A stretch of 37,499 nt of DNA from Aquificota bacterium (lineage in GTDB: Bacteria; Thermosulfidibacterota; Thermosulfidibacteria; Thermosulfidibacterales; Thermosulfidibacteraceae). Below are positions 1-37,423 of this stretch, piece by piece (the first letter of the stretch is position 1; each line of letters begins with the position of its first letter). The translations under genes were made by a program, and so were the position numbers. The notes under the pieces were generated by a model. The model made no database searches and was not told the origin of the DNA. It saw nothing but the letters and a program-made list of their open reading frames with translations. The DNA is taken from positions 1-37,499 of the forward strand of contig WGAU01000030.1 in NCBI GenBank assembly GCA_015494645.1. Direction: 5' to 3'.

Positions 1-1012
1 TGGTAACCTTTCTCTTCTCATAATTCATGGTCTGCTTGGAAAGGATTTGCTGCGCTGGTCCCAAGTTTGATTCTACTCCGGGAATACCACCCACTCCAGG
101 AACCTTGCCCTGAGCCTTTTCCTCAATCTGCTGCTCGCTTCTCACCACATTCTCAGGATCATAAACCACCTTCTCCTTCTCTATCTTACTGTAATCCAGT
201 TCAACGGTAACCTTTGCCACCGCCTTACCGGGCCCCAAGGCCTTGGTAAGCATTGATAGAATCTTTTTCTCGTAAAGCTTCTCTAACTTTCTCTTATACT
301 CCAACCTATCAAGGGCCACTTTGCCCAACTCTTCCTCTTTCTCTTTCGCTATAAGCTCCGTGAGATCCCTACCTTTTGTATCAACCACCGTCACATTTTC
401 AGGCTTCAACCCTTCAACGGCACTGGCAACAAGATGAACTATAGCCTTCACCTGCTCAGGCTTAAGATCCACATCTGGCCTCAACTTCACCACAACAGTG
501 GCTTTAGGAGGTTCCCTTTCCTCAAGGAAAACACTCTTTTTAGGTAAAGACAGCATAACCTTAGCGTTCTCTATAGGCTCAAGTTGCATAATGGTTCTTG
601 CAAGCTCTCCCTGAAGTGCCCTGACATAATTCACATGCTCCATAAACTCAGTCATTCCTATGTTGGTCTTGTCAAAGATCTCAAAACCAACTCCTCCCCC
701 CTTGGGAAGCCCTTCAGAGGCAAGCTCAAGCCTCAAGGAGTATACTCTGTCCTTGGGAACCAGTATGGTCTTACCGCCCTTGGCCAGCTTATAGGGGACT
801 CCTCTGGTCTGAAGGGCCTTTACAATTTCTCCGGCATCTTTGGGATCAAGGTTGGAAAATAGGACTCCATACTCCGGTCCTTTCCTACCAAAAGCTAAAA
901 ACAAAAGACCTGCAAAGGCTAAAACGGTAACTCCAGCTACAACATACCTTTGCCACTTGGGAAGTCTAAGAAACGGATCGGCAAGGTTCTTAAAGTAATC
1001 GGTTATCGCCAT
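1..1012 (-). CDS. fliF: Flagellar M-ring protein FliF, N-terminal part. The gene runs off the left edge of the window.
   Basis: The minus-strand ATG is at 1010-1012. The translation MAITDYFKNLADPFLRLPKWQRYVVAGVTVLAFAGLL...VLFSNLDPKDAGEIVKALQTRGVPYKL is a typical FliF N-terminus with a TM helix. It lies immediately downstream of fliE. The ORF track does not list it because the window holds no stop. Confidence 0.85.
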   Translation of the reverse strand, partial: MAITDYFKNLADPFLRLPKWQRYVVAGVTVLAFAGLLFLAFGRKGPEYGVLFSNLDPKDAGEIVKALQTRGVPYKLAKGGKTILVPKDRVYSLRLELASEGLPKGGGVGFEIFDKTNIGMTEFMEHVNYVRALQGELARTIMQLEPIENAKVMLSLPKKSVFLEEREPPKATVVVKLRPDVDLKPEQVKAIVHLVASAVEGLKPENVTVVDTKGRDLTELIAKEKEEELGKVALDRLEYKRKLEKLYEKKILSMLTKALGPGKAVAKVTVELDYSKIEKEKVVYDPENVVRSEQQIEEKAQGKVPGVGGIPGVESNLGPAQQILSKQTMNYEKRKVT

Positions 1013-9435: not shown

Positions 9436-10397
9436 CTGCTCCCTTCAAGGTAAGAGAAGGTCTCAAAAAAGCCTGAACGCTTAATAAGCAACCTACCACA
9501 GGACGGGCAATAGGTGCTGTTGAGCCTGTCATCAGGCACATTTCCCACGTAAACGAACTTCATCCCTTTGGATTCCGCCAAGAATTTGGCACGGATCAGG
9601 GTATCAACAGGAGTTGGGGGCAAGCTTGTCAACTCGTAGTGTGGGTAAAACCTTGTGAAGTGCAGGGGAATATCCAAGCCAACGCTGGCAACAAAGTCGG
9701 TCAGCTCTTCAAGCTCCTCTAAGGAATCATTGTATCCAGGAATGATCAAGTTGGTCACCTCCACATGAACGCCAGATTCATAGGCAAGCTCAATCGTTTC
9801 CATGGTTGCTCTTAAAGAGCCTCCCCTGCAAACATCCCTGTAAAACTCCTCCCTTATGGATTTAAGATCAATATTCATGGCATCCACATAGGGAATCAGA
9901 TCCTCAAGAGGCTTACGGTTTATCTGGCCATTGGTAACAAGAACAATAGGCAATCCTTTAGGCTTAGCTACCTTTGCCACATCCAATAAGTACTCGTACC
10001 ATATGAGAGGCTCGGTGTAGGTAAAACACACACCTTTAGAAGCGTATCTTTTGGCAACCTCCACAAGCTCTTCTGGAGATACGTATTTTGTAGGACAGGA
10101 GTACTGAGAGATTGAGTAGTTTTGACAGTGAAGACAACCAAGATTGCATCCATTGCAAGCTACAGAGATGATATAACTTCCTGGATAAAAGTGGTACAGA
10201 GGTTTTTTCTCTATAGGATCGTTGCTTATGGTAACAAGCTCACCATAGCCTGTGGCAACAAGCTTTCCTCCTTGGTTGCTTCTGATTCTGCAGAAACCAG
10301 AATTGCCATCAGCTATAACACATTCCCTCGGGCATAGCCTACATCTGACCGTGGACTTGTCCAAGGGCTCCCAGTACTTGGCCTCAGGCTTCATCAC
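9396..10397 (-). CDS. amrS: AmmeMemoRadiSam system radical SAM enzyme
   Basis: It has [10 protein letters not shown] radical SAM cysteines and an N-terminal [18 protein letters not shown] Cys cluster, giving a PflA-like fold. It is adjacent to an AMMECR1 gene. Confidence 0.8.
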
Positions 10398-15799: not shown

Positions 15800-15995
15800 A
15801 GCCCCTTTCCTTCAATCTCTCTCTTAACGCTTTTTGCCATCTCTTAGCCCATTCAAAACGCTTAGACAATAGCAAAAACGCCAAAAGGAAAAAGGGAATC
15901 CCTGGTAAAATGGGTAGAATTGCCCCTATTACTCCCAAACCAAAAAGGACTAAGGCTACAACAATTAGAAGAATAGCTTCAAGAGACCTTTTCAA
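15762..15995 (-). CDS. Small DUF454 (YbaN-like) inner-membrane protein
   Basis: [27 protein letters not shown] matches the YbaN core. The start is TTG, with a GAGGGAAAGGA SD upstream. It overlaps both neighbours. Confidence 0.5.
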
Positions 15996-16890
15996 CGGTC
16001 ATCCTTTCCCTCAGCCTACAGAAGGCACAGGGCGGATACGTGGTAGGATACCCACAGGAAGGACACTCCACAAGCTTCGGTTTCTCTTCATCCACAAAGA
16101 GCTTGTCTTTGACCTTTAAAAACTCCCTGTAAAACCTTATCTTCGTTCCGGGAGAGTTGTACTCAATGGTATTCAAGGCCCTTTTGTAAACAAGAGTGGT
16201 TGCACCCTTAGAATAAGGACACTCATCCGAAAGGAAATTTATTCCTGTAATAAAGGCGTAAACAGCCGTCTCTCTTTCGGTAAGCTCACAAAGTGGTTTA
16301 ACTTTTCTCACAAACTTTCCTTCCTTCGGCAAAACCGGACCCTGTCTGGCCAAATACCCAATACGCCATCCCAAAAGATTGGAAAACAGCACAGCCGTTT
16401 CGTCGTTAAGATTGTGCCCTGTGGCCAACACGTCAAAGCCATTCTCATAGGCGTATTTGTTCATTATATAGCGTTTAACCATACCACAGGCAGCACAAAT
16501 GGTTCTGGTTTCTCTTTGTTTAACATCGTCTATGGAAAAGCCGTATTCTTTCTGAAGATCAAAGACCTCAAGGGGATAACCCCTCTCCTCAGCAAAGCTT
16601 TCCACTATGCCCCTTGCCTTCTGGAAGTGGTTGTTCTCCATTATACCCAAGTCTATGAACAGAGCCGTAACGTTGTAGCCAAGCCTCTTGAGAACGTCCC
16701 ACAGAACCAAGCTGTCTTTGCCACCGGACACAGCCACAAGAACCTTAGAATCCTTGTCAAACATTCTGTACTTCCTCACCACCTCTTTGACTCGCTTGAG
16801 GCAAAATTCCACAATATGTTCATGGCAAAGAGCAATGCCGAAGGACCTGACCCTTATAACAGCTTCCTTTTTACAGAGCTTACACCTCAT
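15979..16890 (-). CDS. ttuA: TtuA/NcsA-type tRNA 2-thiolation PP-loop ATPase (Fe-S dependent)
   Basis: It has an N-terminal Zn finger (CKLCKK...CHEH), the PP-loop SGGKDS, cluster cysteines (CAACG, ECPYS) and a C-terminal Zn finger (CPSCG...CAFC). Confidence 0.8.
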
Positions 16891-21372: not shown

Positions 21373-21829
21373 TCTGCTCCTTCACCAGCTTCTTAAGAAC
21401 CTCCCAGAAATCGGATATATCCCTGAACTGCCTGTAAACTGAAGCGAACCTCACATAGGCAACCTCATCCACCTCCTTTATAAGCTCCATCACCCTCTCA
21501 CCTATTAAACTTGTGGGAACCTCCCTTTCCCCCAAATTGAGAAGATAACGCTCCACCTCGTCAACTATGCCTTCTTGCCTCTCCACGCTTACAGGCCTCT
21601 TCTCAAACGCCTTCCTTATCCCCGCCAAAAGCTTATCCCTGTTGTAAGGCTCCCTCCTACCGTCCTTCTTAACAACCATAGGCATGGTGTCATCTATGCG
21701 CTCAAAGGTGGTAAATCTTCTACCACAGGTCATACACTCCCTTCTCCTGCGTATGGAAAATCCATCCCTGCCCGTTCTGGTCTCCACTACCTTGGTATCA
21801 CCGGAAAGACAAAAGGGGCACTTCATCAC
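21362..21829 (-). CDS. nrdR: Transcriptional repressor NrdR
   Basis: The Zn ribbon is MKCPFC...[10 protein letters not shown]. An ATP-cone domain follows. Confidence 0.9.
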
Positions 21830-23550: not shown

Positions 23551-24010
23551 CTAAGCCTCCCTCCTCACAAACGGCTTTCTCTATCTCCTCAAGCTTTGAA
23601 AGCCTTCTTGCATGCCTTCCCCCCTCAAATTTTTCGGTAAGCCAAATTTTGACAATGGCTTCCGCTTTATCAGGGGAAAGCACCCTCCCACCCATACACA
23701 AGACATTAGAATCGTTGTGAAGACGGCTCATCCTGGCGGTGTACTCGTCATGGCACAATGTGGCTCTAATATTGGGAAACCTATTGGCAACTATGCTCAT
23801 GCCTATCCCCGTACCACAACAGAGGATCCCCCTATCTACCTCTCCCCTCGCAACGGCCCTCGCCACCTTGGCAGCGTACTCCGGATAGTCAACAGACTCT
23901 TCTGAGTGGGTGCCAAAGTCCAAGACCTCGTGGCCCAAACTTTGAAGCAGACTCTTAACAAACTCTTTGAGTCTGTAGCCCCCGTGATCAGAAGCCAGTG
24001 CTATTCTCAA
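23537..24010 (-). CDS. rpiB: Ribose-5-phosphate isomerase B
   Basis: The motifs [10 protein letters not shown]...CGTGIGMSI fit RpiB/LacAB. The start is TTG, with a GAGGAGG SD. The TTG overlaps the upstream TGA (TTGA). Confidence 0.85.
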
Positions 24011-29902: not shown

Positions 29903-30078
29903 CTCCTCTCTTTTATGTGACGAATAAACTTCTCCCTCTCTTTAGCCTTTTCTGGAGCCACCTGTCTCATCCTGTCTACTATACTTTTTCTTTTGTGTAT
30001 TAGTTCCTCTAATCTCTCAAAAAGAAACTCCAGTTCTTCGTCCACAAGGTTCAGTTCCTTTTCTAAATCGTTTTTCAT
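29899..30078 (-). CDS. Unlisted 59-codon ORF encoding a highly charged, helical small protein
   Basis: [59 protein letters not shown]. Its ATG overlaps the ligT TGA and its TGA overlaps the dgt ATG, so both junctions are ATGA. It falls below the track's 60-aa cutoff. Confidence 0.45.
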
Positions 30079-30638
30079 CCCCCACCTCCCAGCTCTACTA
30101 TCTCAAGCTTAACGTAAAGTGCCCCTTCAGGTTTCAAAATACTCCTATAAAGGACAATATTATCCACAACAAACTCACCGTAAAGCCTCTCCTCACCACA
30201 AAAGCTTCTTATAAACCTTCTCTCATCCGGAGAAAGCCTCTTCAATCTGCCCAAAGTGATATGGGGATGAAACGCTCTTCTCTCTTTAGGAAAGCCCAAA
30301 GAGACCATGGACTTCTCAACTAAAGATTGCAGCTTAGCAAGTTCATCGGTAAGTTCAACCCCACACCAAACCACCTTTGGCCGGACAAACCCCGGAAAGA
30401 CTCCCTTACCTCTTATTCTAACCCTAAAAGGACCAACCGAACCAGAACAATCCCTAAGGGCAGAAACTATATTTGGCACCTTGACCTCTTCAACTTCTCC
30501 TAAGAATTTCAAAGTTATGTGGTAAGACTCCCTGGAAGGATAGGAAGCCTTTATACCATAGTCCTTCAACCTCATGGCCTCTTTATGCAGGGTATCCTTA
30601 ATATCCGAAGGGATATCAACTGCCACAAACAACCTCAA
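30075..30638 (-). CDS. thpR: RNA 2',3'-cyclic phosphodiesterase / 2'-5' RNA ligase (LigT/ThpR)
   Basis: Two H-x-T-x motifs are present, YHITLKF and PHITLGR, within the 2H phosphoesterase fold. Confidence 0.85.
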
Positions 30639-31828
30639 TTGAGACGCCTCCTCAACACATCCAGCGCCGCCTTAGCAAACGCCATCTTGTTGCCCAATCT
30701 ATCGTAAGAAAAGCGAAACTCAAAGCTATCCACACGCCCATCAATGCTCACACCTACATACACCAATCCCACAGGCTTCCCGGGAAGTGCCCCCGCTGGT
30801 CCGGCTATCCCTGTGGTGGAAAGCCCCACCTGGGATCCCAAAAGTTTTCTTACCCCTTCTGCCATCTGTTGGGCAACTTCATGGCTGTAAACTGTGTAAT
30901 TTTCTATGTCTTTTTTATCCACCCCAAGGAGCTTTTCCTTGATCTCATCAAGGTAAGCCACAACACCCCCTCTAAAGTACTCCGACGAACCAGAAACATT
31001 GGTTACAAGATGAGCGAGAAGTCCACCTGTGCAGGATTCTGCAACGGCAAGGGTAAGCCCTCTCTCCTCAAGGAGTCTCCCCACCACCCGGGAAAGCTCT
31101 TCATCGTCCATACCAAACAGATTCTCTCCCAAAGCCCTCCTCAAAACAGAATCTACAAGTCCCTCCAGCTTTGCATTGCCCTTCACATTCACCCACACTT
31201 CAGCGTCTCTGATCACAGTTCCCCACCTTACCCCCAACGTCCCAAGGGCTTCCTTAACCAAAGTGTTAACCTCAGACTCCTTCAAACCAAAGGTCTTGTA
31301 CACCTTGAAAAAATCGCTTCCCATAACACACAACTCCCCCACAACTTTGGGAAAGAGCTCCTTCAACTCCCAAGGCACACCAGGAAAGGCAGCCAAAAGA
31401 ATTTTATCCCTCACCCAGAAGGCAGGGGCCAGCCCCCTGGAACTCAGAACATACCGGGCCCCTTCGGGAATTAAAGCCATCCTCTTGTGCTCTTCCCTCG
31501 GTTCCCTTCCCCTTGCTTCAAACTTTGAGCGTATGTCACGCCAAATTTCCTCAACAAAGACGAGCTTCCTCCCGAGAAAATCCGCTACAGCCTCCCTTGT
31601 TCTATCGTCCTCGGTTGGCCCTAAACCACCGCACACAAACACCCCATCAGCGTAGTTTGAAAGAAACCTGAGGAGCTCCGAAATCATAGAAACATCATCC
31701 CTCACTTCCACCACATCCTCAACCTTAACTCCCACCGAAGCCAAAAAGGACTTCATAAAAGAAGCGTTGGTATTCTCCACAAGTCCGTCCACCACTTCAT
31801 CACCAACGAAAAGCAGAGAGACTCTCAT
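30635..31828 (-). CDS. cinA: CinA-family protein: N-terminal MoCF-binding domain plus C-terminal NMN deamidase (PncC-like)
   Basis: 397 aa. It carries the N-terminal GGLGPTEDD motif and a C-terminal CinA domain. Confidence 0.85.
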
Positions 31829-31837
31829 GTAAGGTCC

Positions 31838-32368
31838 TCAATAAGAAAGGGGATCGGACTCACTCCTTGCTAAATACTGAAGCCTGCTAACTCCATCAAT
31901 CTCATTAATAATTCTTGCCACCGCTGGTGGAACAAGCTCCTCCCAAGGCTCTCCCCTTAACATCCTCTCCCTTATGGTGGTGGCACAGTAAAGCTCCCTT
32001 TTGATCATCTTGAGCGGAACCACATCAACACCAGCCTCCATAAGCAGAATCTGGGTTAGGGGATTACCCGTATAAGCCCTCTTAAAAGGGGGAAAGAGGG
32101 AGCGTATATAAGAAGCCCACATGGCGTTGTTCTCTATGTTGGAGTAGGCTCCTATGTAAACTCTCTTTAAATCTATCCTTGCCTCTACCAAAGCCTCATG
32201 GATCATCCAGATACGCTCACCACAGGTGAATGGACTCTTCAAATTGTAATTAAAGTTAGCCGATCCCACAGCAATAATTATCTCGTCATTCTCCTCAAGT
32301 ATCCTTTTTACTACTTCAAGGTGGCCCCTGTGAAAGGGTTGGAACCTTCCCATGTAAAGAGCCCTCAT
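31838..32368 (-). CDS. nadM: Archaeal-type nicotinamide-nucleotide adenylyltransferase
   Basis: 176 aa. [10 protein letters not shown] is the nucleotidyltransferase H-x-G-H motif of the archaeal NMNAT type. Confidence 0.75.
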
Positions 32369-32371
32369 GGC

Positions 32372-33373
32372 CTACCTCACCACCACCCTTCCACTACCCT
32401 TAACTACGTATCCTACACAGGGATACCTGTACAGTCCAGCCCTATCCTCGGGAACGGCCACGAGAAGTCCTCCGGAAGTCTGCGGATCAAAAAGGACCAT
32501 CTCCCAATCTCCCACATTCCTTTCAAACACCACCTTCTGGGAAAAGTATTCCCTATTCCTGTATGCTCCTGCGGGAATAAGTCCCATGGAAGCATACTCA
32601 AAGGCCTCTTCAATAACAGGGATTTTCTCCACCTCCACCACAATATCAAACTCACCGGAAGAGCACATCTCAAGGGCATGGCCGATAAAGCCAAATCCTG
32701 TAACATCTGTTGCGGCAACAGCTCCCACCTCAAGCATCTTCAACGAAGCCTCTTTATTTAATTTCCTCATAGACTCAACAGCTTTCTCCACCGCCTCTTC
32801 TGAAGCAAGACCGGCCTTTATGGCAGTGGTAACTATCCCAACCCCTAGGGGCTTTGTTAGATAGAGCAAAGCACCTTCTTCAAGGGTACTGTTTCTCACC
32901 ACCCTTTCCGGATGAACCCTGCCCACAACACACAATCCGTATTTCGGCTCCTCATCATCTACACTGTGCCCTCCAACAAGGAATGCCCCTGCTTCCTTAA
33001 CCTTCCTCAAACCTCCCACCACAACGCCCCTTGCAACCTCCGCAGGAAAAGCACAGGGAAGACAGAGGATATTCAGGGCAAACCAAGGGTCTCCCCCCAT
33101 GGCGTAAACATCACTTAAAGCGTTGGCAGCGGCTATTTCGCCGAAAAGCTCCGGATCATCCACCACAGGAGTGATAAAATCAACAGTAGCTACAAGGGCA
33201 AGGTCATCCGCTACCTTTACAACTGCCGCATCCTCAAAACCACCAAGTCCGGCAAGTACCTCCTCACCTAAAGGTAAAGCCAACCCCTCCAGAACTTCTG
33301 CAAGGTCCGCCGGACCTATCTTGGCCCCTCAGCCAGAGGCCTTAACCATCTGGGTAAGCTTTATTTCCTTCAT
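32372..33373 (-). CDS. selD: Selenide, water dikinase (selenophosphate synthetase), a selenoprotein with an in-frame UGA
   Basis: The track's ORF (TTG at 33283) is truncated. Reading the same frame upstream gives [30 protein letters not shown]..., which matches the SelD N-terminus (E. coli ..IRLTQYSHGAGCGCKISP..). The TGA falls at the catalytic Cys/Sec position. ATG at 33371-33373 overlaps the yedF TGA. PurM-like domains follow. Confidence 0.85.
33304..33316 (-). other. SECIS-like hairpin 3' of the selD UGA
   Basis: The mRNA reads GGUCC-GGC-GGACC starting 12 nt after the UGA. A possible outer pairing CAAG/CUUG extends it. This is the position expected for a bacterial SECIS. Confidence 0.5.
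33329..33331 (-). other. Selenocysteine (UGA) codon of selD
   Basis: This in-frame TGA is codon 15 of the extended selD reading frame. It aligns with the active-site Cys/Sec of SelD. Confidence 0.8.
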
Positions 33374-33948
33374 ATCCTCACCACGGAAGCAGATCCCAAC
33401 AGGCTCTCAACGGTATCGTACATATTGGTCACACTTCCCACCACAAGCTTATCCTTCAAACCAAAGTACTCCAAACATGTGCCACAGGATAATATCTCTA
33501 CTCCTTCTCTCTCAAGTTCCTTCAAAACATCCGCCACTTTAGAGCCTTCGGTGGTAAGATAGACACCGCGATTTATAAAGATAAGTTTTTTAGGCTTTAC
33601 TGAAGACTCTCTCAAAGTCGCTATAAACGCCCTTATTAGAATCTGGCCAAGCTCCCTATCCTCACCCATGGAATCTGACAAAAAGATCATGACCTTATCG
33701 GATGTTGTTTTGTCTTCAACCTGAGGTAGAGAACAGGCGTATCCCTTGGTGATAATAAGGCGATACCCCCACTCCTCCTCTTTAATTTCAAGCGAGCACC
33801 CCTGCTTCTGAGCAAACCTCGCCACATTCTCCTTAGAAGCGGGATTGTCAACAAGCACCTCTACAATGCCCTCTTCAATGCCCTCAAGGGCCTCTTTGGT
33901 CATGAGAACCGGCTTGGGACAGGCACATCCTCTCGCATCAACAACCAT
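33370..33948 (-). CDS. yedF: Selenium metabolism protein YedF (TusA-like N-terminus plus DsrE-like C-terminus)
   Basis: CACPKP is the TusA-type Cys motif. The C-terminal DsrE/DsrF-like domain gives the architecture of the selD-associated YedF family. ATG at 33948 with a GGAGG SD is preferred over the track's GTG at 33954. Confidence 0.75.
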
Positions 33949-35107
33949 TTCCACCCTCCGCTATGCTTTTCACAGCATCAACGGCAAGCTTCACATCCTC
34001 TTCACTGTTGAAGGGTCCCAAAGAAAACCTAACAGTACCTTTGGGATATGTACCATAGGCCTTGTGCGCCCACGGAGCACAGTGAAGCCCAGGCCTTGAA
34101 GCGATGCCAAACTCCCTGTCAAGGACAGAAGAAACCTGGGCAGCATCCATCCCTTCTATTACGAAAGATACCACAGGCACCCGCTTATCAATCCTCTCCA
34201 GATCGGCAAAAACCCTCACTTTAGATATACCTTTAAGTCCCTCAACAAGAGACTCAAAAAGTCCCATCTCATGTTTTCTAATCTTCTCCACTCCCTTCTC
34301 AATTACCCACTCAATACCAGCTTGAAGACCTGCAAGGCCATGCACATTCAATGTCCCACTCTCAAACCTGTCCGGCAAGACATCGGGTTGCTCATCAAGT
34401 TCTGAATAACTCCCCGTACCTCCCCTGATCATAGGAGCGAGTTGATACGCAGCAGGGATGAACAGACCGCCTACCCCCTGAGGACCAAGAAGCCCCTTAT
34501 GTCCGGTGAAGACAACAAAGACATTGTCAAAATCTCCTACATCAAAGGGATAGGCGCCCAAGGTCTGGGTTGCATCAACCACCACAGGGACTTTGACCTT
34601 ACGAGCCACCTCCTCAAAAGGCGTAACCACGCCAAATACATTGCTGGCATGATTTATGCAAATAACCCTCGTCTCCGAATCCACGAGGGAAAGGATGCTT
34701 TTCGGCTCAACATAGCCCGAAGGAGAAGTCCCAGCGATACGAAGCTCTATTCCATTTCTCTTGCACCAGTACTTCAGGGGCCTTGCCACTGCATTGTGCT
34801 CCAACGCAGTGGCCACAACATTTCCCCCGCTAACCTCAGAAAGCAATCCGTAAATGGCAAAATTTGCCGCATAGGTAGCGTTCATGGTGAAGATTACACG
34901 TTCAAGATGATCCACATTGAGAAGCTCAGCGATAAGTTTTCTGCACCTATAGACAATTCTTGCCGCCTCTACAGAAAGTATGTGTCCGGAACGCCCCGGA
35001 TTTCCCCCAATACCTTTCCCGTATTCCAAAAGTTTCTCCCAAACACTTTCCGGTTTGGGGAAGGAAGTAGCAGCGTTGTCAAGGTAGCAAACGTTCAAAG
35101 CCCTCAT
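33938..35107 (-). CDS. Class-V aminotransferase: cysteine desulfurase / selenocysteine lyase-like, selD-associated type
   Basis: 389 aa. It has the PLP-lysine region [12 protein letters not shown] and a C-terminal active-site region [10 protein letters not shown]. Confidence 0.8.
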
Positions 35108-35303
35108 TGTAAACAGACTCCACTTTCAAACCTTTCAAAACTTCCATTACCCTTTCAAGAGGCTCCTCTGTCTTTATGCACAGACCACAGCCAGCAGATA
35201 TACTCTTGGGAACAGGCATAAGCTCACAAGATAACCCACACTCCAACATCCTCTCTTCCGCTTTAAGGGCCTCAGTGGTACTATGAAACACTACATAGAT
35301 CAT
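35079..35303 (-). CDS. DUF3343-family small protein (putative Se/S carrier)
   Basis: The sequence [47 protein letters not shown] fits the DUF3343 pattern of an FHST N-terminus and a C-G-L cysteine. ATG at 35303 is preferred over the track's TTG at 35369. Confidence 0.65.
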
Positions 35304-36688: not shown

Positions 36689-37423
36689 ATGAAGAGGTTA
36701 ACCATCGCAGCAGCCATATTTCTAACTCTTTTAACGGGATGCTCATCCTATCAAGAAACCGTTCAGCCTATAAAGATACCCCAGTATCAGAGCAAAAAGG
36801 TTGAAGTTAACGGTGCCTATATCATCGCAGAAGCCTACGTTGAACCTAAAATAGCCAAAGAAAAGTTCGGCTTTGACATAAGAGGGGCGGGAATAATACC
36901 GGTGCAGGTGGTTATACAGAACAACGGCAACCACACTATTCTTATAGACGAGGAACAAACCTTCCTGATTGATGAGAAGGGTCAAGGGTGGCCTCTTTTA
37001 AGCTTTGAGCAGGTGTACAACAGGATTAAAGATAAAGTAGAAATCGGAGAAGCCGTGCAGGGAGCCAAAAAGCCTTCCATACTGGGAGCTGCAGCGGGGG
37101 CTATCATAGGAGCAGCCATAGCTATTGTTTCTGGAGAAAACGTGGGAAAAGCCACAGGAAAAGGTGCAGCAGCAGGAGCAGCAGCAGGAATTCTCATCGG
37201 AGGAGCACAATCCATGGCCCAAGCAGAGGAAAAAATCAAGGATGATCTCACCCACAAGACTTTAAGAAACAGAGTTATAGCTCCCAAGGAATTAGTTCAC
37301 GGTTTCCTATTTTTCCCAGGAAGAAAAGAAGAAGCGCAATCTGTAAAAGTGCTGAGGCTGGCCCTGAGATTTGATAACAGTCCCCACCCCAAAATAGTTG
37401 AAATACCTCTGAAAAGGATGTAA
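36689..37423 (+). CDS. Lipoprotein with a glycine-zipper membrane segment; function unknown
   Basis: It has a signal peptide with the lipobox LTGC, and a Gly/Ala zipper [19 protein letters not shown]...[26 protein letters not shown] is present. Confidence 0.65.

Follow-up and report, generated by a model that had tools for sequence, protein, structure and literature searches.

The selD gene lies on the reverse strand of the analyzed stretch of DNA (37,499 nt, hereafter the window), in a cluster whose order is DUF3343, TIGR01977 enzyme, yedF, selD, NMNAT and CinA. The features on which our analysis rests are as follows, with positions numbered from the first letter of the window.

32372..33373 (-), full-length selD coding sequence, 333 codons plus the stop TAG (32374..32372), with the proposed selenocysteine (Sec) at codon 15
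33371..33373 (-), proposed true start ATG, overlapping the yedF stop as ATGA
33375..33382 (-), Shine-Dalgarno-like GGTGAGGA just 5' of the ATG, a putative function judged from sequence
33329..33331 (-), in-frame TGA, proposed Sec codon (residue 15) from alignment and conservation
33320..33322 (-), AAG, Lys18 of the U-G-A-K motif and catalytic Lys by alignment with SelD homologs
33281..33283 (-), TTG start used by ORF and gene callers, codon 31 (Leu) of the full-length protein
33303..33317 (-), proximal SECIS candidate AGGUCC-GGC-GGACCU, with a 6-bp stem, 3-nt loop GGC and 11-nt spacer from the UGA
33278..33311 (-), distal, overlapping SECIS candidate, an irregular hairpin at +18..+51
33370..33948 (-), yedF, TusA-like plus DsrE-like selenium-metabolism protein (TIGR03527, 222 bits versus a cut-off of 110)
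33938..35107 (-), cysteine desulfurase/selenocysteine-lyase-family PLP enzyme (TIGR01977, 415 bits versus a cut-off of 377)
35079..35303 (-), small DUF3343/Se_S_carrier protein, 74 aa as called (PF11823 on the called gene)

The public gene call for yedF is 192 aa, and the gene adjoins selD in L003 and in the two nearest relatives, L001 and L002, which are syntenic. The PLP enzyme gene is also syntenic in L001 and L002, and its product scored below the cut-off of the SclA model NF040779 (294 versus 525 bits). No NCBIfam match was found for the DUF3343 protein at 35079..35303. Both the link of YedF to SelD and the association of DUF3343 with YedF and the Sec lyase have been described (PMC5322559).

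The mechanical ORF list gives selD as 32372..33283 (-), a 303-aa product starting at TTG, and the public gene calls we examined (ENA ERZ23495249 scaffold_115 and Logan SRR10312501) give the same product, for which the AIRS domains PF00586 and PF02769 are recorded. Those calls leave an 86-nt gap after yedF and do not label selD as a selenoprotein. A preliminary description of the locus had proposed that this 303-aa call conceals a longer gene with an in-frame UGA and an ATG overlapping yedF, and the sequence bears this out. Translation from the ATG at 33373 to 32372 yields 29 residues and a single TGA followed by the called protein, the TGA at codon 15 (33331..33329) being the only internal stop of the frame. 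The bases of the overlap are likewise as described, with the yedF stop TGA (33372..33370) sharing bases with the selD ATG (33373..33371), and similar four-base start/stop overlaps occur at several other junctions in the window, examples being 10394-10397, 21826-21829, 24007-24010, 30075-30078 and 30635-30638. Because of this overlap, translation of selD is probably coupled to that of yedF. L001 and L002 likewise have an ATG at the yedF stop or overlapping it, lying 11-14 codons ahead of the TGA, and a GGTGAG/TGTGAGG motif before the ATG is kept.

The extended product is a member of the SelD family along nearly its entire length. It matched TIGR00476 with 360 bits (cut-off 125), residues 5-311 corresponding to profile positions 1-310 of 311, and also passed NF002098 (304 bits versus a cut-off of 299). 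Alignments with proteins of known structure, for which Cys was written at the TGA codon, extended over residues 4-311 for Aquifex aeolicus SelD (2yye/2zod; E = 3.8e-70) and began at residue 4-5 for Escherichia coli SelD (3u0o; E = 7.9e-64). In these alignments the TGA is opposite the Cys of Aquifex 'SGCAAKVGP' and of E. coli 'AGCGCKISP', the latter being Cys17, and the earlier assignment of the TGA to the Cys17 column therefore holds. The motif A-S-G-[TGA]-G-A-K matches AGCGCK of E. coli and SGCAAK of Aquifex, and this N-terminal loop is present only if the UGA is translated. By the same alignments, the protein started at the TTG is devoid of the loop that bears the catalytic Sec/Cys and Lys.

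Comparison with related loci revealed that the TGA is the rule at the catalytic column rather than a peculiarity of the window. It is present in 78/80 related genome loci and 74/79 metagenome loci, 152 in all, versus a Cys in E. coli, L022, L067 and five metagenome loci. A (R/K)LT...G*(G/A)(A/S)K block is kept on either side of the TGA across related loci, and the catalytic Lys three residues after it is conserved in 80/80 relatives. The 14 codons before the TGA and the 15 from the TGA to the TTG display conservation at the protein level across phyla. Both L001 and L002 carry the TGA at the catalytic column, and over the ten codons before it the window and these relatives differ by nothing beyond synonymous changes and K/R- or Q/E-type substitutions. 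On the question of whether relatives start at the downstream TTG/ATG, the outcome favors the earlier proposal, as the relatives keep the upstream block through the TGA. The best match of the window SelD is 71% identical; L088 is 71% identical but begins at residue 116, and SelDs of Actinomycetota and Chloroflexota match it at ~50%. A metagenome scan for closer relatives, with hairpin covariation in mind, returned no N-terminus of >51% identity.

The RNA immediately after the UGA has the form anticipated of a bacterial SECIS element. The hairpin core GGUCC-GGC-GGACC named in the preliminary description is present at 33316..33304, 12 nt downstream of the UGA, and an additional A-U pair extends its stem to 6 bp. 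The first loop G of this proximal hairpin is at +18, with a UGA-to-loop distance of 17 nt. The bSECIS model calls for a loop of 3-9 nt, a stem of 4-16 bp, a G in loop positions 1-2 and a UGA-to-loop distance of 16-37 nt (PMC13188914), and another description gives a stem of 6-8 bp and, ~20 nt downstream, a conserved G in the loop (PMC4605307); the proximal hairpin fits both. [quoted passage not shown]

Several comparisons indicate that this structure is not a by-product of the encoded peptide. Synonymous recodings of the proximal region have a mean of -1.9 +/- 1.7 kcal/mol versus its -7.9, and 0.2% of them are equally stable. The hairpin uses codons that are uncommon in the remainder of selD, GAC (2/15 Asp codons elsewhere) and GCG (4/34 Ala codons), and in the 18 genes encoding the G-P-x-D-L peptide the Gly is GGT in 18/18, whereas GGT accounts for 10.5% of their remaining Gly codons. 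The UGA plus 15 codons folds at -18.4 kcal/mol (z = -2.8 relative to synonymous recodings, at -10.9 +/- 2.6), and z was below zero in 71/79 Sec-type genes. The RNA after the UGA carries structure in excess of what the encoded protein calls for. The observation also exceeds what chance would give: of the 1286 TGAs in the window, 7.5% pass a loose SECIS-like rule, and 1.9% pass a stricter rule under which the stem must start 10-14 nt after the TGA. A proximal G-loop hairpin of this class was found in 94/127 distinct Sec-type sequences (74%), in ~24% of controls and in 0/6 Cys-type genes, although since the sequences share phylogeny these enrichments, like the recoding figures, are not strict probabilities. 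L008, L010 and L030 share the GGUCC-GGC-GGACC core exactly, and other relatives, mostly Actinomycetota, have a version with a GGA loop. Searches of Rfam, with the whole window at gathering thresholds and with 33230..33400 at E <= 10, returned chance-level matches only, a result that carries little weight.

A longer, distal hairpin overlaps the proximal one and competes with it. Its apical stem of 4 bp (CAGA/UCUG, 33300..33290) sits on lower stems of 6 and 3 bp, its AGU loop lies at 33296..33294 (+33..35), 32 nt past the UGA, and it also fits the bSECIS geometry. At -14.7 kcal/mol it passes the -7.5 criterion (recodings -8.8 +/- 2.5, 1.65% equally stable) and is the MFE structure of the free RNA; its class is weakly enriched (49/127 Sec-type sequences versus 26% of controls). 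In the free-RNA ensemble at 37 C the probability of the proximal hairpin is practically nil, owing to an alternative fold of -23.5 kcal/mol, and at ~85 C, the temperature suggested by protein composition, this hairpin is predicted to have almost melted. L001 and L002 have a longer, GC-rich stem of 8-9 bp, its register shifted by 3 nt and its GGA loop at +21..23, whereas a Glu-to-Asp codon difference (GAG/GAC) leaves the window with the 6-bp hairpin only. Two tandem G-loop hairpins occur in 26/127 Sec-type selD mRNAs. Possibly, the SECIS has been remodeled in this lineage, either by a move of the SelB element to the distal hairpin or by use of either of the tandem hairpins, because the 6-bp proximal hairpin should be near-melted at ~85 C and a stabler, window-specific distal hairpin arose. 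We regard such remodeling as unlikely; were it true, it would be a natural case, in a hyperthermophile, of SECIS turnover or redundancy. The proximal AGGUCC-GGC-GGACCU remains most likely the stem-loop that would recruit SelB.

The machinery for Sec decoding was sought around selD. Neither selA, selB nor tRNA-Sec turned up in the window or in the ~60 kb covered on scaffold and MAG (GCA_027040215.1) contigs, comprising scaffold_115 at ~33.6-81 kb and ~10 kb beyond the window start via JALUHD010000163.1. The scaffold beyond the window, extended from the proteins at the window edges, has flagellar, POR and acyl-CoA-ligase genes and no sel genes. ARAGORN identified no tRNA in the window or L081 (L084-L086 were left out), and an NCBIfam scan of 26 window proteins and eight from L001/L002 identified no selA and no selB. 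A scan of the ~60 kb for genes interrupted by TGA, run against a greedy non-overlapping gene set, singled out selD as the one credible case of a gene that can be extended past one TGA into sequence without an assigned gene, and disclosed no other selenoprotein gene nearby. A second TGA-interrupted match, in L086, was rejected as low-complexity and implausible.

That no Sec genes were found in the region covered is a point in favor of a UGA that is read through as something other than Sec, whether by reassignment to Trp or Gly or by near-cognate suppression with Cys- or Trp-tRNA to give a Cys- or Trp-containing SelD. Precedents exist for each route, as UGA has been reassigned to Trp or Gly in some reduced-genome lineages, and near-cognate tRNAs read through some UGA under limiting selenium. 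Against these stands the finding that, among the other long ORFs of the window that do not overlap, 13/36 end in TGA, yedF directly upstream being one of them, so the genetic code is standard and UGA is not reassigned. Moreover, the only TGA-interrupted gene in ~60 kb is interrupted exactly at the known Sec/Cys catalytic column, and simple suppression needs no SECIS-like hairpin under synonymous-site constraint after the UGA. Relatives with the same TGA also carry the Sec genes beside selD: ten with a TGA-type selD have tRNA-Sec within ~6 kb, and the locus L003 reads selD-yedF-selA-selB-tRNA-Sec. We therefore consider read-through as another amino acid very improbable. An error of sequencing or assembly, by which TGC or TGT of an ordinary Cys-type selD became TGA, has been given even less credence and we practically discount it. 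Metagenome assemblies do contain errors, and one affects this locus in the NCBI MAG, where a 17-nt difference is an N-run scaffolding artefact in yedF and not biology. However, three assemblies that may stem from overlapping read sets, the ENA scaffold, Logan SRR10312501 and the NCBI contig JALUHD010000194.1, agree over all 220 nt around the selD TGA, and the independent MAGs L001 and L002, like >150 further loci, carry TGA at this column. The window selD also has the hairpin that none of the six Cys-type genes has.

A different objection is that the TTG at 33283 is the real start of a 303-residue SelD without the N-terminal loop, or else that the gene is a decaying pseudogene, with the upstream 30 codons being an untranslated leader. 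Mechanical ORF finding and the public gene calls both give this start, and a GGAGGGG stretch immediately precedes the TTG. That GGAGG-like stretch, however, leaves a gap of only ~2 nt to the TTG, less than a normal ribosome-binding site needs. An untranslated leader is also at odds with the protein-level conservation of the 14 codons before the TGA and the 15 that follow, and with the synonymous or conservative nature of the differences among the window, L001 and L002. The segment that such a protein would be missing holds the catalytic Sec/Cys and Lys, and among N-terminally truncated selenophosphate synthetase constructs without the catalytic residues, one failed to complement selD-deficient E. 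coli (PMC7595633). Both versions are, in our estimation, extremely unlikely.

We are consequently highly confident that selD encodes a full-length selenophosphate synthetase of 333 residues with Sec at catalytic residue 15, the insertion of Sec itself being deduced from the gene. The original proposal of a selenoprotein hidden by ORF truncation is thereby supported by the family match, the column of the TGA, the conserved block, the normal use of TGA as a stop and the excess of RNA structure. Translation would begin at the ATG at 33373, overlapping the yedF stop. At the UGA (33331..33329), SelB with Sec-tRNA(Sec) would be recruited by a stem-loop just downstream in the coding sequence, most likely AGGUCC-GGC-GGACCU, and Sec would be inserted in place of termination. 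The product would have the SelD N-terminal motif G-U-G-A-K on a flexible selenium-handling loop and would make selenophosphate from selenide and ATP. The products of the upstream genes, DUF3343, the TIGR01977 enzyme and YedF, plausibly deliver selenium to SelD. The public 303-aa protein with its TTG start would be an artefact of reading the UGA as a stop.

The main consequence of this finding is for annotation, as the public 303-aa SelD lacks its catalytic loop. As a result, pipelines that survey selenium traits or selenoproteomes would record a truncated enzyme and miss the Sec-decoding trait, here in a lineage that is thinly sampled and probably hyperthermophilic. If SelD is of the Sec type, the use of selenium by the organism itself depends on selenium, and the organism is predicted to carry selA, selB and selC.

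The locus has counterparts in several known systems. The four families of the neighborhood described by Lin et al. 2015 (PMC5322559), DUF3343, Sec-lyase family, YedF and SelD, are adjacent and co-oriented in the window as well. The resemblance to the E. faecalis SclA operon (cited in PMC13188914) is partial, with the window PLP enzyme matching TIGR01977 and missing the SclA-specific model. The flanks of the window selD are without YedE, LysR_Se, selA and selB, unlike those of L003. Native Aquifex SelD has Sec at position 13 and was crystallized as a Sec-to-Cys mutant; in the window SelD, Sec is at residue 15. The two proteins share the loop motif SG-[Sec/Cys]-xAK-xGP and a thermophile context, and Aquifex SelD (2yye/2zod; N-terminally truncated form 2zau) is of the same family and fold class, AIRS/AIRS_C. 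Their alignment is well short of identity, and the window SelD is thus not a close ortholog. E. coli SelD (3u0o) is of the same enzyme family with the same Cys17/Lys20 spacing, but uses Cys (UGC) and no SECIS, whereas the window selD has a UGA and then a hairpin. Relative to the bSECIS consensus (bSECISearch model, PMC13188914 Fig. 2), the window has in addition a stabler overlapping AGU-loop hairpin that fits the geometry. Sec-containing SelD has been described as ranking second among prokaryotic selenoprotein families in how widespread it is (PMC13188914; Zhang et al. 2006, PMC1794560), and is among the commonest and best-known bacterial selenoproteins. The window selD would share the arrangement of other Sec-type bacterial SelDs, a UGA in the N-terminal selenium-binding loop and then a SECIS in the coding region (PMC1794560; PMC9312934; PMC13188914). 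It leaves knowledge of SelD, SECIS and Sec decoding unchanged and, with no essential difference from Sec-type SelD generally, adds a further member to that well-known group from a thinly sampled thermophilic lineage.

The selD gene of the window very probably encodes a full-length, Sec-containing SelD. The preliminary description had proposed a selenoprotein hidden by ORF truncation, and this proposal is supported by the position of an in-frame TGA at the catalytic column, by its conservation in relatives and by UGA not being reassigned. Re-reading of the window sequence reproduced the frame, TGA and ATG as described, with one refinement to the hairpin that follows the UGA:

32372..33283, minus strand: ORF of the mechanical ORF list, 303 aa, TTG start
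From ATG 33373..33371, minus strand: full-length selD frame (translation of the same frame), 333 sense codons and terminal TAG
33331..33329, minus strand: single internal TGA of the selD frame (translation)
33317..33303, minus strand: proximal hairpin AGGUCC-GGC-GGACCU, 6-bp stem, GGC loop, 11-nt spacer after the UGA

The upstream gene, yedF, ends in a TGA that is overlapped by the selD ATG (ATGA), with a GGTGAGGA stretch directly 5' of that ATG, and several further junctions in the window ORF tables show 4-base start/stop overlaps, as had been noted. The truncation is also present in public data, since public gene calls give a SelD of 303 aa and leave an 86-nt gap without a gene call after yedF. 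The window belongs to an 87-kb metagenome scaffold (ENA ERZ23495249 scaffold_115); the same DNA occurs in the Logan assembly of SRR10312501 and, fragmented, in the NCBI MAG GCA_027040215.1. On NCBI MAG contig JALUHD010000194.1 (L085:1-1200; ~window 33640 and 32818), a 10-N scaffolding gap and a 7-nt duplication inside yedF split that gene into small ORF calls and the contig terminates within selD, so that the deposited MAG has no intact copy of either gene. A biological origin for the 17-nt difference in the NCBI copy was rejected, as it is an N-run scaffolding artefact within yedF.

Profile and structure comparisons, run with Cys written at the TGA codon, identified the full-length protein as SelD. 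It scored 360 bits against TIGR00476 (cut-off 125; residues 5-311 on profile positions 1-310), also passed the NF002098 cut-off, and matched the solved structures of Aquifex aeolicus SelD (2yye/2zod; 3.8e-70, residues 4-311) and E. coli SelD (3u0o; 7.9e-64). The TGA aligns with the catalytic Cys of each, within 'SGCAAKVGP' of Aquifex and 'AGCGCKISP' of E. coli, confirming its assignment to the E. coli Cys17 column, and a conserved Lys follows three residues on.

The TGA is retained at the aligned column in 78 of the 80 nearest genome loci, with Cys in the other two (L022 and L067), and the block (R/K)LT-x-(L/M)-x(3)-(A/S)G-*-(G/A)(A/S/C)K is kept across the stop in this set; TGA also stands there in 74 of 79 informative metagenome loci, the other five having Cys. 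Relatives therefore do not start downstream without the upstream block, the observation that would have spoken against the preliminary description. The window's species has no entry among the 185,579 GTDB representatives searched, and the best SelD matches were to an 'uncultured Aquificales' MAG (L001, 71%) and an unclassified MAG (L002, 68%). These share with the window the gene order M23 peptidase, TIGR01977 enzyme, yedF, selD, NMNAT, CinA, LigT, HD hydrolase, hemL and Band-7. In all three, an ATG lies at the yedF stop with a GTGAG-type motif just before it, and the only differences in the 10 codons 5' of the TGA are synonymous or replacements of the K/R and Q/E types. We infer that the UGA is decoded, as its retention at the catalytic codon in three ~70%-identical syntenic genomes would otherwise make no sense.

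Reassignment of UGA would also allow readthrough, and was rejected because 13 of the 36 long non-overlapping ORFs in the window, yedF among them, end in TGA. Around the selD TGA, a stretch of 220 nt is the same in the three assemblies. A scan of the window and both flanks for genes extendable through one TGA into sequence without a gene call recovered selD and no other credible gene.

Bacterial SECIS elements have been modelled with an apical loop of 3-9 nt, an upper stem of 4-16 bp, a G within loop positions 1-2, a UGA-to-loop distance of 16-37 nt and an MFE <= -7.5 kcal/mol (PMC13188914), and alternatively described as a 6-8 bp stem with a conserved loop G ~20 nt 3' of the UGA (PMC4605307). 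The hairpin GGUCC-GGC-GGACC of the preliminary description was correct in position and sequence, and gains one more A-U pair, which sets the spacer at 11 nt. Its loop begins 17 nt from the UGA, with the first loop G at +18, and its energy (-7.4 kcal/mol alone, -7.9 in context) is borderline against the threshold. Only 0.2% of synonymous recodings of the same peptide in the gene's own codon usage fold as stably over +11..+28, and the hairpin employs GAC and GCG, which elsewhere in the gene account for 2 of 15 Asp and 4 of 34 Ala codons. The GGUCC-GGC-GGACC core is identical in Thermovirga (L008), a Eubacteriales MAG (L010) and a Synergistales MAG (L030), and other relatives, mostly Actinomycetota, have a version with a GGA loop. 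All 18 genes with G-P-x-D-L at this site use GGT for Gly, the rarest Gly codon elsewhere in those genes (10.5%), and GAC for Asp. Hairpins of different sequence occupy nearly the same place in L001 and L002 (GGGCCGGC/GCUGGCCC), Dehalococcoidia (CCCAGA/UCUGGG) and L043 (GGUCAG/CUGACC). Overall, a G-loop hairpin with its loop at +17..+24 was found in 94 of 127 distinct Sec-type sequences, compared with ~24% at control positions in the same genes and none of six Cys-type genes; at all window TGAs, the base rate was 7.5% for a loose SECIS-like rule and 1.9% with strict spacing. The recodings, codon choice, recurrence in relatives and enrichment are evidence for selection on the proximal hairpin.

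In free RNA at 37 C, however, the proximal hairpin is outside the predicted ensemble. In the minimum-energy fold (-23.5 kcal/mol), GGGCC (+2..6) is paired with GGUCC (+13..17), and +18 to +51 form a longer, irregular distal hairpin, whose AGU loop (+33..35) tops the apical stem CAGA/UCUG. A ribosome with UGA in its A site would cover roughly the first dozen nt after the UGA, and the GGGCC/GGUCC helix therefore cannot persist. The distal hairpin overlaps the 3' arm of the proximal one, making the two mutually exclusive in full. Its geometry too agrees with the bSECIS model (32 nt to the loop, G at loop position 2), and it is stabler than 98.35% of synonymous recodings, but its class is only weakly enriched in Sec-type genes (39% versus 26%), and L001 and L002 lack it, having instead a proximal hairpin of 8-9 bp with the register shifted 3 nt. 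For these reasons the proximal hairpin is favoured, by homology, as the candidate SelB site. Both hairpins are predicted to be weak at ~85 C, a temperature to which nearest-neighbour extrapolation is unreliable, and SelB binding would stabilise its target. A remodelled or redundant SelB-binding element in this hyperthermophilic lineage would be mildly novel, and we consider it unlikely.

Two further observations concern RNA structure. Tandem G-loop hairpins 3' of the UGA, with loops near +18-22 and +32-35, occur in 26 of 127 distinct Sec-type selD loci (L038 and L062 among them), and the window carries weak versions of both (33317..33303 and 33300..33290). The Cys-type selD of L022, a Melioribacteraceae MAG, has excess structure ~60 nt after its UGU (-12.8 versus -5.5 kcal/mol for synonymous recodings, z = -3.06) and no G-loop hairpin fitting the rule after its Cys codon; in this single case the structure may be what is left of a SECIS, such remnants having been described in PMC1794560.

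No selA, selB or selC was found in the window or the flanks examined, and our reading predicts that the bin must contain tRNA-Sec, selA and selB. Ten relatives with TGA-type selD have tRNA-Sec within ~6 kb of it, at a similar distance downstream (L003 and L004, L005, L007, L009, L014, L023, L042, L053, L057). In an Actinomycetota MAG (L003:6001-12607), selD(TGA), yedF, selA, selB, tRNA-Sec and a LysR-type regulator, which may belong to the LysR_Se subfamily of PMC5322559, form a compact row. In the window (30635..32368, minus strand), the next gene after selD, 3 nt away, is an archaeal-type nicotinamide-nucleotide adenylyltransferase, with CinA/PncC (NMN deamidase family) behind it, an order that L001 and L002 share; NAD salvage and selenium metabolism have no functional connection known to us.

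Amino-acid composition (IVYWREL 0.45 for window proteins, or ~87 C by the Zeldovich regression) suggests a hyperthermophile. Minus-strand genes make up 28 of the 34 long genes, and GC skew stays negative (-0.1 to -0.34) throughout but for ~12-14 kb, the site of two plus-strand ABC-transporter genes. A 244-aa ORF at 36689..37423 (plus strand), with no Pfam family on record, has a hydrophobic N-terminal segment with Cys, lipoprotein-like by eye, and a Gly/Ala-rich stretch. A sulfur-relay cluster (15979..16890, minus strand, and L086:29-223) lies some 16 kb away from the selenium genes; in it, a TtuA-type tRNA 2-thiolation enzyme adjoins the gene for a SAMP2/ubiquitin-like sulfur carrier of 64 aa and MnmL/YtqA, a radical-SAM tRNA modification gene.

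Genes for DUF3343, an enzyme of the Sec-lyase family, YedF and SelD have been described together as a selenium-metabolism cluster (PMC5322559); in the window, the PLP enzyme passes TIGR01977 (415 bits versus 377) and falls below the SclA-specific model (294 versus 525). The window locus shows no departure from what is known of such genes. The third structure match, 2zau, is an N-terminally truncated Aquifex construct whose alignment starts at query residue 37, and the gene caller's 303-aa SelD is essentially its equivalent. Selenophosphate synthetase constructs with a truncated N-terminus are without the catalytic residues, and one failed to complement selD-deficient E. coli (PMC7595633); the practical value of our analysis is the correction of this annotation, together with the prediction made above for the bin. 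FdhA and SelD have been reported to be the most widespread bacterial selenoproteins, at least one being present in every selenoprotein-containing organism examined (PMC1794560). Sec-type SelD is already well known, and the window gene is another such case.
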